Notes: a model not told the origin generated them from the sequence alone. A DNA stretch of 35,426 bases from a virus (IMGVR_UViG_2609460354_000004:1-35426); one strand, 5' to 3'. Shown: positions 16,696 through 29,834, counted from the first letter of the stretch. Numbers and translations are program-made.

Positions 16696-16913
16696 CAGAA
16701 CCTCGCCAGCCGGTACCCGGGATGCCCCCGTCGTCGTGTAATCAGAGCCGCAAGGCGGCGCTCCCACTCCTGCCGTCCCTGCCGGATCTCAGATAAGTTT
16801 TCCATGGTCATCTGCTGACCATTAAAGGTGACGGATTTTCCGTCCAGCACCGCCATTTCAGCTTCCATATAACGCTGAATCATGGCTTCGATATCATTCT
16901 GGTTCATAACCAT
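16695..16913 (-). CDS. head-tail joining protein, gpW-like
   Basis: 72 aa; C-terminus ...RRRGHPGYRLARF resembles the lambda gpW C-terminus (...RRRGPAGFYV) as recalled. Lies between terL and portal as W does. Confidence 0.6.
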   Translation of the reverse strand: MVMNQNDIEAMIQRYMEAEMAVLDGKSVTFNGQQMTMENLSEIRQGRQEWERRLAALITRRRGHPGYRLARF

Positions 16914-18016
16914 CCTCCGGAAGTCAGCCAGGGGTTAACATCGTCAGTTACTGTTTTCTTCCGTTTTTGTTTTTTAACAGGCGTGGATACCGGTTCCGGT
17001 GAGGATGACGGTTCGGTACTGTCCTGGACACACTCCAGCCAGGTTTCCCGGCTCGCCCACTCCGGTGCATCCGGCCAGCGGATCTTTTCGTATCCATGCA
17101 GAATGACCAGAGCCTCGGCATACACCATCAGGTCAAAAGCTTCGTTGGCACCGCGACCCGGCTTACTCCATTTCCCGTCACTGCTCCGCTCTTCATACGT
17201 CAGTTCGTCGTAAAACCAGCTCCCCAGCCAGTCAGGGAAATGCACATAGCCGGGACCTGGCGAGTTACGCCATAACGCGTTATTCACCCGGTCTTTCAGT
17301 GCATCCGTCTGAAGAAGCCAGAGCGGCACATCACCTGCGGCCTGCGCCCGTCGGCCCGTTCGTCCGGTGTTATCAGGGAATGTACGGGTGATCAGTTTTG
17401 CGCGCCGGATGCTGTCGCCCTTAAACAGGTAAATACGTTTACCAAGGCCATCACGACGGCAACGACGCCAGAATTTATAGGCATTATCAGTGACCCCGTC
17501 TTCACCGCCGGAGTCCACCGCCATTGCCATCAGTCGCATTTGTTGAGAAGGATCGGAGGCCAGCGGCCAGCTTTTATGAAAAACATCCGTCAGCAGGACA
17601 TCCCAGTCTTCCGGATAGCTGGCCGGATCAATTCGCTGGCTCTCCCCGTCGCTGTCACCGCGCAATGACTGCGTGATGTTGTAACGATCAATAATCCAGC
17701 GTTCGCCACGGCTGCCATAGCCCGTTACCTGAACCACAAAACGGCGATGACGTCCCGCCTGCACATCCACTGTCGCCACAAGGAAATTAACGCCATCCGG
17801 CACACTGCGGGAAGGAACTGGCTCTGCCCGCTGCTCAAGCAGTTCACTTTTTCGTTGCTCCATGCTGGCGCGGGGAAGATAAGGTAATCCCCAGTCGGTA
17901 TTGATAACCGTCTTGAGTGTTTCTTCACTTCCGGTTGTCTCGTATTCCTGTTCTGCAGTAAGCAGTTTGTAAACGAGTTGCGAGAGTGTCTGGTAAGCAG
18001 CTGCCGGACCCTCCAT
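16904..18016 (-). CDS. terminase large subunit, C-terminal (nuclease) half; gene interrupted by island insertion
   Basis: 370 aa. ...GYVHFPDWLGSWFYDELTYEERSSDGKWSKPGRGANEAFDLMVYAEALVILHG... resembles the C-terminal half of lambda gpA. The first ATG lies inside the 13-bp junction repeat and there is an in-frame stop 12 codons upstream in island DNA. Confidence 0.85.
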   Translation of the reverse strand: MEGPAAAYQTLSQLVYKLLTAEQEYETTGSEETLKTVINTDWGLPYLPRASMEQRKSELLEQRAEPVPSRSVPDGVNFLVATVDVQAGRHRRFVVQVTGYGSRGERWIIDRYNITQSLRGDSDGESQRIDPASYPEDWDVLLTDVFHKSWPLASDPSQQMRLMAMAVDSGGEDGVTDNAYKFWRRCRRDGLGKRIYLFKGDSIRRAKLITRTFPDNTGRTGRRAQAAGDVPLWLLQTDALKDRVNNALWRNSPGPGYVHFPDWLGSWFYDELTYEERSSDGKWSKPGRGANEAFDLMVYAEALVILHGYEKIRWPDAPEWASRETWLECVQDSTEPSSSPEPVSTPVKKQKRKKTVTDDVNPWLTSGGWL

Positions 18017-18020
18017 CCAG
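18008..18020. repeat. junction direct repeat, left copy (putative att core) ACCCTCCATCCAG
   Basis: 12 of 13 nt identical to 28836-28848 (ACCCTACATCCAG), with partial matches extending to about 20 bp. Both copies are in the same register of the terL reading frame. Confidence 0.6.
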
Positions 18021-18393
18021 GAAGAAGTAAATAAAAGGTAACTAAATGATTATAAGGTACTATTGAGTTATGCCCCCTACAACATAGTCCCAGATTTAGT
18101 ACCTGCTTAAGCGATAAAAAAGCCAAAAAGGAAGCAATATTAATTATTGCCGCTATGCATGATCACAATGACAAATCAGAGGCGGAATTCCGCTCTCGGA
18201 ACTCACATATGAGAAACGATATTTCTTCCACCGATACCCTTTATTTGGGTATCGCGAGTAAGCCCCAAAATCTGGGTGTTACTCTTACTACCCAAACTAC
18301 GGGTAGTTTCCGTAGTTTCATAGTCGAGTTGCAGATCTGCAACTCGCCACCAGTTGCTAAGTGCATTTTTGCACTTTCGATAATATCAACCAG

Positions 18394-27438: not shown

Positions 27439-28677
27439 TCAACCATTTACTATTCTCAAACCTTTCTTACCACAGGATCTATTAATTACCCCTTTTCTCG
27501 CCTCATCAAAAAAATCGCCTACCCATTGCATCATAATTTTGCGTTGTTCTAAATAAGTAGTTCTATTATAAATATCTCTTATTTTATCACCACTTTTATG
27601 TGCTAATGCAGCCTCAATAACATCAGGGTTAAAACCCTCCTCATTTAAAAGCGTACTCCACATCGAACGAAAGCCATGTAACGTTACAATCCCTTTGAAC
27701 TTGCTGGCAGCAATTGGAGTATTGATAGTATTCCTCCCCATAGGCGCGTCTTTGGTTCTGGATGAATAGAATACATAACGCCCTCTTTTAATTTCCTGCA
27801 TTGTTCTGAGGATGCTAATGGCTTGTGATGACAGGGGCACAACATGTTCACGATGGCATTTCATTTTATGCTCAGGGATAACCCACAGACCAGCATCAAA
27901 ATCTATCTCTGCCCACTCTGCCTGGATCGCCTCTCCAGGCCTGACCATTGTCAATATCTGGAATAAAAGCGCATTGTGAGCTATTTGATACTTATGAGGC
28001 ACACTATCCCACCAACTCAGAAATTCAGGTAATTTTTCTATAGGTAACGCTGCTAATAATTTATTTTTCTTTCCAGTGAATGCTGTCTTTATTTTAAGCA
28101 ATGGATTTATTTTCAATGCGCCACAATTTACAGCGTAATTCATGATTTCATTTAACCTTGATATTAATTTTTTTTGCAGCGCGTTTTTATCAGATACGGC
28201 ATCCAGTGCCTTAATTGCTAATGGTGCTGTAATTTTATCTATACTGTATTTACCAAAGAAAGGAACAAGATACTTATATACTTCATATTCGATATTATAC
28301 AACGTAGGCTTCCGCAACTCCGATCCTTTTTTAAAAGCGAACCATGCATTAGCAACGACTTCAAATGTCTGCAGATTTTTTAGCGCCATCTCAATTTTAC
28401 GATTTTTCTTCTCTGTCACTGGATCAACTCCACGTGCAATCATTCGCCGAAGCTCATCACGTTCTTCCCGTGCTTCCGCGAGTGAGAATTCAGGAAAACG
28501 CCCTATCGTGTATGTCTGCCGTTTCTTCGTTATCGGATGGCTATAACGGAAACGCCACACTTTCCCACCAGCTTTACTCACATTCAGCAATAAACCGAAC
28601 CCATCATAAACGGCATAGTCCTTTTCACGTGGTTTCATCCCCTTAACTTCAGTCACGGTTAATGGCTTTACCGACAT
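27439..28677 (-). CDS. int: tyrosine recombinase, P4-type integrase
   Basis: 412 aa. N-terminus ...YAVYDGFGLLLNVSKAGGKVWRFRY... and C-terminal catalytic region (...HGFRSMWSTLLNEEGFNPDVIEAALAH...IRDIYNRTTYLEQRKIMMQWV...) resemble P4/CP4-57-type integrases. AT-rich relative to flanking DNA. Confidence 0.9.
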   Translation of the reverse strand: MSVKPLTVTEVKGMKPREKDYAVYDGFGLLLNVSKAGGKVWRFRYSHPITKKRQTYTIGRFPEFSLAEAREERDELRRMIARGVDPVTEKKNRKIEMALKNLQTFEVVANAWFAFKKGSELRKPTLYNIEYEVYKYLVPFFGKYSIDKITAPLAIKALDAVSDKNALQKKLISRLNEIMNYAVNCGALKINPLLKIKTAFTGKKNKLLAALPIEKLPEFLSWWDSVPHKYQIAHNALLFQILTMVRPGEAIQAEWAEIDFDAGLWVIPEHKMKCHREHVVPLSSQAISILRTMQEIKRGRYVFYSSRTKDAPMGRNTINTPIAASKFKGIVTLHGFRSMWSTLLNEEGFNPDVIEAALAHKSGDKIRDIYNRTTYLEQRKIMMQWVGDFFDEARKGVINRSCGKKGLRIVNG

Positions 28678-28835
28678 CTATCACCCTCATTTTTTAGTCC
28701 GTCATGTAGTCCATTCAAGTCGATAACAAGCGATAAACTAACTCATTATCAAGTAAAGAGAGGAAACTTAAAAAATCACAACTCATTGAAAAGACTATAA
28801 AACGACACCAGAACATAAAAACAGGTAAGAAATGT

Positions 28836-28848
28836 ACCCTACATCCAG
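28836..28848. repeat. junction direct repeat, right copy (putative att core) ACCCTACATCCAG
   Basis: Matches 18008-18020 at 12 of 13 nt. Supplies the last two codons (W, M) and the TAG stop of the terL N-terminal fragment. Confidence 0.6.
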
Positions 28849-29834
28849 AATGACGCAATACGTGAGCGTCGGGGATCACCATAACGACTGCCATCCGCAT
28901 TGATGGATTCACCATCCCGCAACCAGACCCCACGTCCGTTCAGCTCACGTTTTTGTTCAGGCATAATCCGTCCTGAACAGGAAGGACACTGAATATAAGC
29001 CGCCTCACTTGCCAGCACGGGATCGGCAATATCACGGAAACCAGCAACCACATCGCCGCAGGGCTGAAAATACTCACCACAGTGTGGACAGGGCCAGTAC
29101 CAGCGACGGCGATCACCACGGTTATAGAGCGACAGGATCCCCGTGGTTGGTGGAGCCTCATGCGGTGAAGTCCGTCGCCATTTCACATCCTTCACATCCC
29201 TGCCGGGGGAACTCTCCACCAGCGTCATACCGCTGGACATAAATGTGGTGGTACGTTTTGAGGCAAGAGAGAAAGCATCCCCCTCGCCATCAATATCTTC
29301 CGGAAAACGGTCATAATCCGTCAGCGCGACGCATTTATAATCTGATGAGGACATGATATTGACTGACGGCCAGCCGATTTTCAGGTAGTTACCAGCAAGG
29401 AATGTTCTGTCATAAACGTTGTTGTCATTTTTGTTCGGACTCAGGCGACTGACCACTTCAGGGCTGACGCGAAACGTTCTGGCGAGTCGTTTTTTGGAGT
29501 GTTCGCGGGCTTTTTCCTCCGTCATCTGAATGATCAGCATATCAGCAGGATCGCAAATCACGTTGTAAATCACCCAGCCGTCAATCAGGCCGATAGTCTT
29601 GCCGGTTCGTGCCGGGCCAACAAATATCACTGCGTCGTATTCACGCGAGGCCAGGCAGTTCATCGGCTCAATAACATACGGTGCCACCAGCGGATCCCAC
29701 GGGACTGAGTTCCCTGCCCCCATGGGCACCCGCATATACTGAGCAACGGCATCAGCAACCCGCATTCGTCTCGGTGCGCGAAGGATATAACCTGAATCGG
29801 TTCGGGCTGCCTTTGCGGTTTCCTGATTCAGCAT
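28839..29834 (-). CDS. terminase large subunit, N-terminal (ATPase) half; gene interrupted by island insertion
   Basis: 331 aa with a Walker A motif (FVGPARTGKT) and ...WYWPCPHCGEYFQ..., resembling the N-terminal half of lambda gpA. Ends ...RIASFWM then stop at the island junction. Start overlaps the terS stop. Confidence 0.85.
   Translation of the reverse strand: MLNQETAKAARTDSGYILRAPRRMRVADAVAQYMRVPMGAGNSVPWDPLVAPYVIEPMNCLASREYDAVIFVGPARTGKTIGLIDGWVIYNVICDPADMLIIQMTEEKAREHSKKRLARTFRVSPEVVSRLSPNKNDNNVYDRTFLAGNYLKIGWPSVNIMSSSDYKCVALTDYDRFPEDIDGEGDAFSLASKRTTTFMSSGMTLVESSPGRDVKDVKWRRTSPHEAPPTTGILSLYNRGDRRRWYWPCPHCGEYFQPCGDVVAGFRDIADPVLASEAAYIQCPSCSGRIMPEQKRELNGRGVWLRDGESINADGSRYGDPRRSRIASFWM

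Follow-up and report, generated by a model that had tools for sequence, protein, structure and literature searches.

In the present study, we analysed IMGVR_UViG_2609460354_000004, a viral DNA of 35,426 nucleotides (its whole length is termed the window here), in which the large-terminase gene terL of a lambda-like Escherichia coli prophage is split by a 10.8-kb island. We consider it highly probable that this island is a phage satellite of the phage-inducible chromosomal island (PICI) type in a helper-embedded configuration, and that its excision restores terL exactly. Helper-embedded PICIs (HE-PICIs) have been described by Tommasini, Mageeney and Williams (2023, NAR Genom Bioinform; PMC10111431), who reported Eco567.11capE (11capE) and 491 relatives. 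The terL fragments, the integrase (int), alpA-like and primase genes of the island, and the late genes of the prophage (the helper) share the minus strand. The order on that strand is terS, terL-N, int and the alpA-like gene, then further on the primase gene, and finally terL-C and portal, all co-oriented.

A terL gene split at a 7-bp core

The features at the split gene are as follows.

28839..29834, minus strand: terL N-terminal fragment (terL-N), 331 codons with the GpA ATPase domain, ending in RIASFWM and a TAG (28839-28841) from island DNA
16904..18016, minus strand: terL C-terminal fragment (terL-C), a 370-aa open reading frame (ORF) from the Met331 codon, with the GpA nuclease domain and the C-terminus (MEGPAAAYQTLSQ)
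28842..28848, minus strand: attL core CTGGATG (..C TGG ATG); the discriminating base 28841 is T, giving TAG
28836-28841, minus strand: island P′ arm TAGGGT, adjoining the attL core
18014..18020, minus strand: attR core CTGGATG; the discriminating base 18013 is G, giving GAG, Glu332
18021-28841: island proper, 10,821 bp between the cores
attL junction sequence: CATTCTGGATGTAGGGT
attR junction sequence: CTTCCTGGATGGAGGGT
attB (predicted restored) junction sequence: CATTCTGGATGGAGGGT
attP (predicted excised-circle) junction sequence: CTTCCTGGATGTAGGGT
29834..30328, minus strand: helper small-terminase gene terS (DUF1441), directly upstream of terL

An initial annotation of this DNA, made from the sequence alone, had placed a 13-bp repeat at each junction, with the Trp-Met codons of terL in the same register in both. 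The two repeats, ACCCTCCATCCAG at 18008-18020 and ACCCTACATCCAG at 28836-28848, do lie at the predicted coordinates and in that register; on the coding (minus) strand they read CTGGATG-G-AGGGT and CTGGATG-T-AGGGT. The common pattern ACCCTMCATCCAG has two occurrences in the window, both at the junctions, and none in 100 shuffles. As the site of exchange, the repeat was correctly located but too broadly drawn: the true core is 7 bp, (C/T)TGGATG, and the remaining AGGGT is a similarity between the flanks of attP and attB. In eight complete loci the block of identity is exactly these 7 bp with a mismatch on each side, T/C at the left, and at the right T in attL (TAG) and G in attR (GAG or GAA, Glu). 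The core corresponds to the third base of the Phe329 codon and the Trp330 and Met331 codons of a GpA-type terL. The N-terminal fragment ends, as the initial annotation had it, at a TAG supplied by the island directly after Met331. The C-terminal ORF opens at the Met331 ATG inside the repeat, and no purine-rich Shine-Dalgarno motif is present in TTTATTTACTTCTTCCTGG, directly 5′ of that ATG, again in agreement with what had been claimed.

Joining the two fragments at the repeat was expected to give an ORF of about 700 codons, and our reconstruction encodes 700 aa with no internal stop. This ORF arises only if the crossover falls within the 7-bp CTGGATG, 5′ (in the terL sense) of the mismatch; when the island-side base after the core is retained, the joined product carries the TAG. 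Alignment of the excision product with intact terL homologues, the check proposed at the outset, gave a full-length match in which the reading frame is kept and no segment is lost. Over 601 bp, the reconstructed junction matches the unsplit terL of at least 25 complete E. coli genomes among the matches listed at 100% identity; 1049 records match it at 99% or more, and the contiguous site is found in 1936 genomes. Among phages, the identity of this junction is 100% for phi458 and PhiR40_1 and 99.3% for mEp460. The rebuilt TerL is 99.86% identical to the TerL of phi458 over all 700 residues (one residue differs) and holds complete GpA_ATPase (41-304) and GpA_nuclease (326-644) Pfam domains. The insertion point thus lies where the ATPase domain gives way to the nuclease domain, near position 6 of the GpA_nuclease profile.

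The prophage does not appear defective irrespective of the island, an outcome that the initial annotation had held to speak against its reading: with the island removed in silico, each of the 18 late proteins (TerS to Lom) has the full length of its phi458 counterpart. Phage phi458 is presented in its description as a spontaneously induced phage of avian pathogenic E. coli (PMC9701743). Many genomes carry the same prophage arm (99.6% identity) free of the island, and the match begins exactly at 28836. The closest complete genome, that of E. coli B1-56 (NZ_AP040249), is 99.7% identical over 26000-35426. Its locus holds a lambdoid prophage in which int, xis, cI/cro-like genes, an O-like gene and Q are present and pseudogenes are limited to two small ones. 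In the RefSeq annotation of B1-56 by the Prokaryotic Genome Annotation Pipeline (PGAP), each half of terL is listed as a pseudogene of its own (‘missing C-terminus’ and ‘missing N-terminus’); the two are unlinked, and the island is unmarked. The same unlinked double-pseudogene annotation is found in five further loci, including those of O121 RM8352, SCU-171, and UTAK-5. Since PGAP reports two terminase pseudogenes in a ‘defective’ prophage, prophage-integrity predictors would misjudge such loci.

The junctions recur widely. An attR-type junction is present in 79 of 5426 complete E. coli genomes (~1.5%) and an attL-type junction in 35; the carriers include O157:H7, O121:H19, O145, and O111 strains, in which the integrase region has ~83% identity. 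Eight full loci and 44 attL junctions taken from public assemblies show the same codon occupied in at least eight terL alleles of E. coli and Salmonella; among these are alleles of O157, O121, and Salmonella prophages, with TerL identities of only 61-71%. In Salmonella, an integrase with 75% identity lies directly behind a 333-aa GpA_ATPase fragment, and an identical Int protein is found behind at least three helper backgrounds. In the O157-type pair, the helper Phe codon is TTT and TTGGATG stands at both junctions, a co-variation to be anticipated if the 7-bp overlap has to be the same in attP and attB. The 7-bp core alone is common, with 16 copies in the window; therefore, specificity must come from flanking binding sites. 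In attP as reconstructed (window 18021-18240 joined to 28841-28620, minus strand), there are two candidates for such arm-type repeats. One, TTTATCGCTT, is shared by the four E. coli attPs that we compared, at positions near -98 and +111 relative to the core; the other, GGACTAYR, occurs in both attP arms and is conserved in E. coli and Salmonella.

Island genes and a model for excision and packaging

The island carries the following features; the cos-like element of the helper is given last for comparison.

27439..28677, minus strand: tyrosine integrase (Int), 412 aa, with Arm-DNA-bind_3 and Phage_integrase domains and a GAGG Shine-Dalgarno motif; 161 bp downstream of the terL-N stop
27223..27426, minus strand: AlpA-like small helix-turn-helix protein, 67 aa, candidate excisionase/regulator
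27189..27209, minus strand: first strong intrinsic-terminator-like hairpin on the late strand, just after the alpA-like gene
26586..27164, minus strand: Bro-N/anti-repressor-like protein, the ‘Bro zone’ (Pfam, PHROGs)
26082-26261, plus strand: YlcI/YnfO gene, divergent from the other island genes
25676..25882, minus strand: Icd-like cell-division inhibitor gene (coordinates transferred from the B1-56 annotation)
22917..25030, minus strand: replication module, with DUF4222 (24731-25030) and a D5_N/DUF5906/Pox_D5 primase-helicase (22917-24734)
22700..22920, no strand assigned: iteron array, at least 8 copies of GGTGAACAGT, direct and inverted, just downstream of the primase gene
21965..22387, minus strand: single-stranded DNA-binding protein (SSB; Pfam, PHROGs)
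21853..21932, minus strand: island cos-like element B, upstream of the capsid gene; its cosB side resembles that of phage cdtI
19421..21334, minus strand: ClpP-like prohead protease/major capsid fusion, 637 aa (Pfam, PHROGs)
19317..19396, minus strand: island cos-like element A, upstream of the island terS; its cosB side resembles that of the helper
18678..19163, minus strand: island small terminase, TerS (DUF1441/PHROG 141; start taken from the B1-56 annotation)
18394..18681, minus strand: conserved ORF of ~95 aa (PHROG 1561, function not assigned by family)
30472..30551, minus strand: helper cos-like element, 144-223 bp upstream of the terS start

The core set of Gram-negative PICIs is present on ~10 kb, and the genes follow the order known from such islands: an integrase, an AlpA-type protein (a weak assignment), a primase-replicase, a capsid-related gene and TerS, with no tail or lysis genes. 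Searches of the larger ORFs with Pfam and PHROGs found no terL, portal, tail, lysis or head-tail connector genes on the island, in agreement with the annotation of the near-identical island. The GGTGAACAGT iteron array is a putative origin of satellite replication. An Rfam scan for P4-type C4/isrK immunity RNAs, aimed at the Bro zone, gave nothing on the island at the gathering score. The sole Rfam match in the window belongs to the helper prophage; it is a match to the STnc100 small RNA family at 35081-35271 (minus strand), located upstream of the lysis region, and it scores 114 bits where the gathering score is 47.

The late genes of the island resemble those of its helper. The island TerS is 68% identical to the helper TerS, and the stretch 18733-19396, which covers the island terS and the upstream cos region, shows 74-82% nucleotide identity to the helper terS/cos region. 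It seems that this region was captured from the late genes of a helper-type phage, an origin proposed in general for the late zones of PICIs; the related islands of O157 and O121 are without terS. The protease-capsid fusion is 57% identical to that of the helper (13215-15434) and has ~29 residues fewer in the linker, a gap that could bear on the determination of capsid size.

There are three copies of the ~80-bp cos-like element in the window, two on the island and one in the helper. We read them as cos sites because the record of the related phage cdtI begins inside the element at GGGCGGGAGCGT, where it resembles the lambda cohesive end. The cosN-like GGGCGGGAGCGT/G of island element B is identical to that of the helper. 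The mEp460 record was also considered as a guide to the cos ends and was rejected, as it starts at terS; phage cdtI was used instead. Related islands in O157, O121, and Salmonella have a single cos-like copy. The two island cos sites of different cosB type may widen the range of helpers.

From these features we infer how excision, presumably reversible, would take place in vivo and how it would be tied to packaging. Int would have recombined the attP core with the matching 7 bp in terL of a lambdoid (mEp460/phi458-like) prophage. While the island is integrated, the ATPase fragment would stop at the island TAG, the nuclease fragment would have no ribosome-binding site, and neither genome would be cut at cos or packaged. 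Upon induction, late transcription of the helper would pass terS and terL-N and then enter int and the alpA-like gene. No terminator-like hairpin was found in the 161 bp between the terL-N TAG and the start of int, and a simple scan found no sigma-70-like promoter before int. Therefore, read-through of helper late transcription into int and alpA is the most economical reading. Late in the lytic cycle, Int and the excisionase-like protein would cut the satellite out within the 7-bp core, giving ...TTC TGG ATG GAG... and an intact 700-aa TerL. The satellite circle would then replicate from its own primase and iteron origin and would be packaged at its own cos site(s) by the rebuilt TerL of the helper together with its own TerS. 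Satellite capsids would be built with its own protease-capsid fusion, and the particles would use helper tails.

The satellite has the packaging needs for a GpA-type terminase except TerL, which it interrupts. As the island is without terL, both helper and satellite would need the rebuilt gene. The composite would exceed the helper genome by ~24% (10.8 kb on ~44.9 kb, as in phi458), more than the roughly 10% to which inserts in lambda are limited (cited in PMC10111431). If this model is true, packaging of both helper and satellite hinges on the satellite’s own excision, and the satellite thereby gains a control over timing that is unattainable for a satellite acting in trans.

Weighing the alternatives

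Several observations weigh against a functional helper-embedded satellite, and some of them would also fit a dead-end insertion, in which the composite is a fixed defective remnant with no useful excision and the split terL is a pseudogene. Among the relatives of the island, several are housed in helpers that have decayed or have themselves received IS66 insertions. At the O157 locus, the capsid fusion and tape measure genes are frameshifted; an internal stop is present in the capsid fusion gene at the O121 locus and in a tail gene at the A5 locus. The islands of E. coli SCU-171 and UTAK-5 are ~13.1 kb long, both with IS66 insertions; several island genes are frameshifted in SCU-171, and IS66 interrupts the capsid fusion gene in UTAK-5. 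Some embedded islands are thus decaying in place, and some copies are probably trapped. The O121-type junctions (E. coli O121 RM8352 and one IMG/VR contig) show a reciprocal +1/-1 nt anomaly: attL reads TTTC-T-TGGATG-TAGGG, with an extra T, and attR reads CTTC-TGGATG-GAAGG, short of one base. Recombination within TGGATG would there yield a frameshifted terL, which is consistent with integration across a mismatched overlap, after which the island was trapped. The attP junction (a 30-nt pattern with Y at the variable core base) had no match in IMG/VR or JGI metagenome contigs, while 34 IMG/VR contigs carry attL; this absence is weak evidence. No packaged copy of the island was found in the phage collection, where there were partial matches to helper-type head genes and a primase only. 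Three further points concern the model itself. The AlpA/excisionase assignment rests mainly on the position beside int, and is weak (HTH_17 match at E=0.004; PHROG 66, ‘excisionase and transcriptional regulator’, at 1e-6). The two cos-like sites of the island are co-oriented and 2.5 kb apart, which is awkward for unit-length packaging. Finally, the early region of the helper lies outside the window, and its inspection refers to B1-56 only. On the other side, int, both att cores, every examined island gene and the 18 helper late genes are intact in the window. A recent insertion is suggested by the junction flanks, which do not differ from the empty site (100% identity), and the presence of an identical Int in several helper backgrounds requires recent mobility. 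Hence, we regard a dead end as unlikely for the element studied here.

Elements that split a gene and restore it on leaving are known from regulated gene integrity, or active lysogeny, as in the skin element in sigK of Bacillus subtilis and phi10403S in comK of Listeria. There, the split gene is restored by a precise, developmentally timed excision. The interrupted gene is that of the host, and the benefit goes to the host or the phage. An island of this kind would be a removable spacer serving host or prophage, which excises and re-integrates and is not a transmissible satellite. The geometry of the terL locus, an in-frame split restored by excision, fits such elements, and ‘regulated gene integrity’ has been used for HE-PICIs by the authors of PMC10111431. 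However, a spacer would not need a primase with iterons, SSB, a capsid protein, TerS, and cos sites matching those of the helper, and this island occupies many unrelated helper alleles in two genera. Moreover, unlike skin and phi10403S, it interrupts a gene of another mobile element, an arrangement that plausibly serves the satellite. We therefore find a host-serving or prophage-serving switch very improbable; the ‘switch’ of the initial annotation is better read as a satellite holding the terminase of its helper hostage than as host regulation. Chance repeats or an assembly artefact, with the terL pieces being unrelated pseudogenes, could draw only on the abundance of the 7-bp core. This explanation is refuted by the 13-mer pattern, which is confined to the junctions where none is expected, by the 100% identity of the joined 601 bp to intact genes, and by the same junctions in dozens of independent complete genomes.

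Relation to known satellites and to a possible second integrase lineage

The idea put forward in the initial annotation is in substance the published HE-PICI model. As in HE-PICIs, a late gene is split, there is no replacement copy of the target segment, and the ORF is restored only by removal of the island (here in silico). The island shares with 11capE the four-zone layout of int/alpA, Bro, replication, and late genes; its primase is 87% identical; DUF4222, Icd-like, YlcI/YnfO, and SSB genes are common to both; and both carry a homologue of a helper head gene together with a cos-like sequence. In contrast, the target is terL here and the capsid gene E in 11capE, and a TerS is encoded by the island, while terS is stated to be missing from 11capE (PMC10111431). 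Precise excision of 11capE after mitomycin C, following composite replication, has been demonstrated by quantitative PCR and deep sequencing (PMC10111431), whereas excision of the present island is deduced from its junctions.

The integrase marks a further difference, being only 25% identical (86 bits) to that of 11capE. The HE-PICI survey included elements at 400 bits or more in TBLASTN searches with the 11capE integrase, while none of 120 homologues of the present integrase exceeds 105 bits against it. A doubled TGTATTGC attP motif has been reported as unique to HE-PICIs (PMC10111431); TGTATTGC is absent, within 1 mismatch, from the reconstructed attP arms, which carry the different repeats TTTATCGCTT and GGACTAYR. 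With up to 3 mismatches allowed, the doubled motif tgTGTATTGCantgTGTATTGCa (in HE-PICIs ~81 bp upstream and ~132 bp downstream of the attP centre) was found at neither end of the island.

The helper large terminase (the cognate of lambda gene A) is also interrupted at the HE-PICI sites A:Terminase_1:132 and A:Terminase_1:245/246. Those sites differ in lying in a TerL of the Terminase_1 family, with identity blocks such as AATATCACGA, whereas the present one lies in a GpA-family TerL with the core CTGGATG. Neither a GpA locus nor the CTGGATG-tagggtac junction was found in the supplementary lists or the attL/attR files of PMC10111431. Within the literature accessible to our searches, we found no later description of such an element and, for interrupted or split terL, no report. 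Thus, on all the features tested, the element is in the HE-PICI configuration, outside the published integrase clade; it has the same backbone and strategy as HE-PICIs, with a swapped integration module and a new site. The published concept is thereby extended by a GpA-family terL target, the presence in Salmonella and in O157/O121, an integrase outside the defining lineage, and an island with two cos-like sites.

The int-alpA-primase backbone, a capsid-related gene, and a size of ~10 kb are also those of classical Gram-negative PICIs such as EcCICFT073 (PMC10111431, PMC10085698), and so is the hijacking of a lambdoid helper through TerS and cos, to which the helper-like cos elements, TerS and capsid fusion of the island point indirectly. 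However, classical PICIs reside at chromosomal sites (tRNA genes, fis, hpt) and act on the helper in trans, whereas this island lies inside the helper terL. With capsid-forming PICIs (cf-PICIs), it shares an HK97-type capsid/protease and a small terminase of its own. The definition of cf-PICIs, however, also requires terL, portal, and head-tail connector genes, which were not found on the island.

Relatives of the integrase with at least 45% identity are at most 27.5% identical to the 11capE integrase. All seven contexts of lineage members that we examined are co-oriented inside prophage late operons, among them the GpA terL site in E. coli and in Salmonella. The 45-61%-identical relatives lie in late operons of E. 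coli, Salmonella, Raoultella, Enterobacter, and Pantoea. They are found behind a prohead protease gene (Salmonella), in the tail-gene region of lambda-type prophages (E. coli), behind a DUF2213 head gene, behind a portal gene, within tail or baseplate genes, and behind a 153-aa fragment that covers positions 4-65 of the 251-position Major_capside profile. We therefore lean, if only slightly, towards a second integrase lineage with a tropism for late genes, such that embedding is not the property of one clade; the split gene is mapped for terL and the capsid fragment only. If true, embedding in helper late genes evolved at least twice and would be a general satellite strategy. An automatic excision script (7-mer repeat and ORF extension) was tried on the relatives; it gave many false joins inside island genes, even in the window, and was not used for att sites. 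A scan of species-representative genomes with the integrase returned a best hit of 41% identity and no close relatives, and is uninformative on the family. Relatives of 40-42% identity are chromosomal satellites, one of them beside smpB/ssrA and one at another site.

A different location was also seen for an integrase closely similar to that of the window. In the contig IMGVR_UViG_2737471855_000016 (attL at ~1157), the 412-aa integrase and the P′ arm lie beside a chromosomal gene for a LysR-family regulator, and the sequence upstream reads TTTGTCACTTTT-TGGATG-TAGGG. This island seems to have integrated off target, away from any terL, in the manner of the ‘off-target HE-PICIs’ of PMC10111431.

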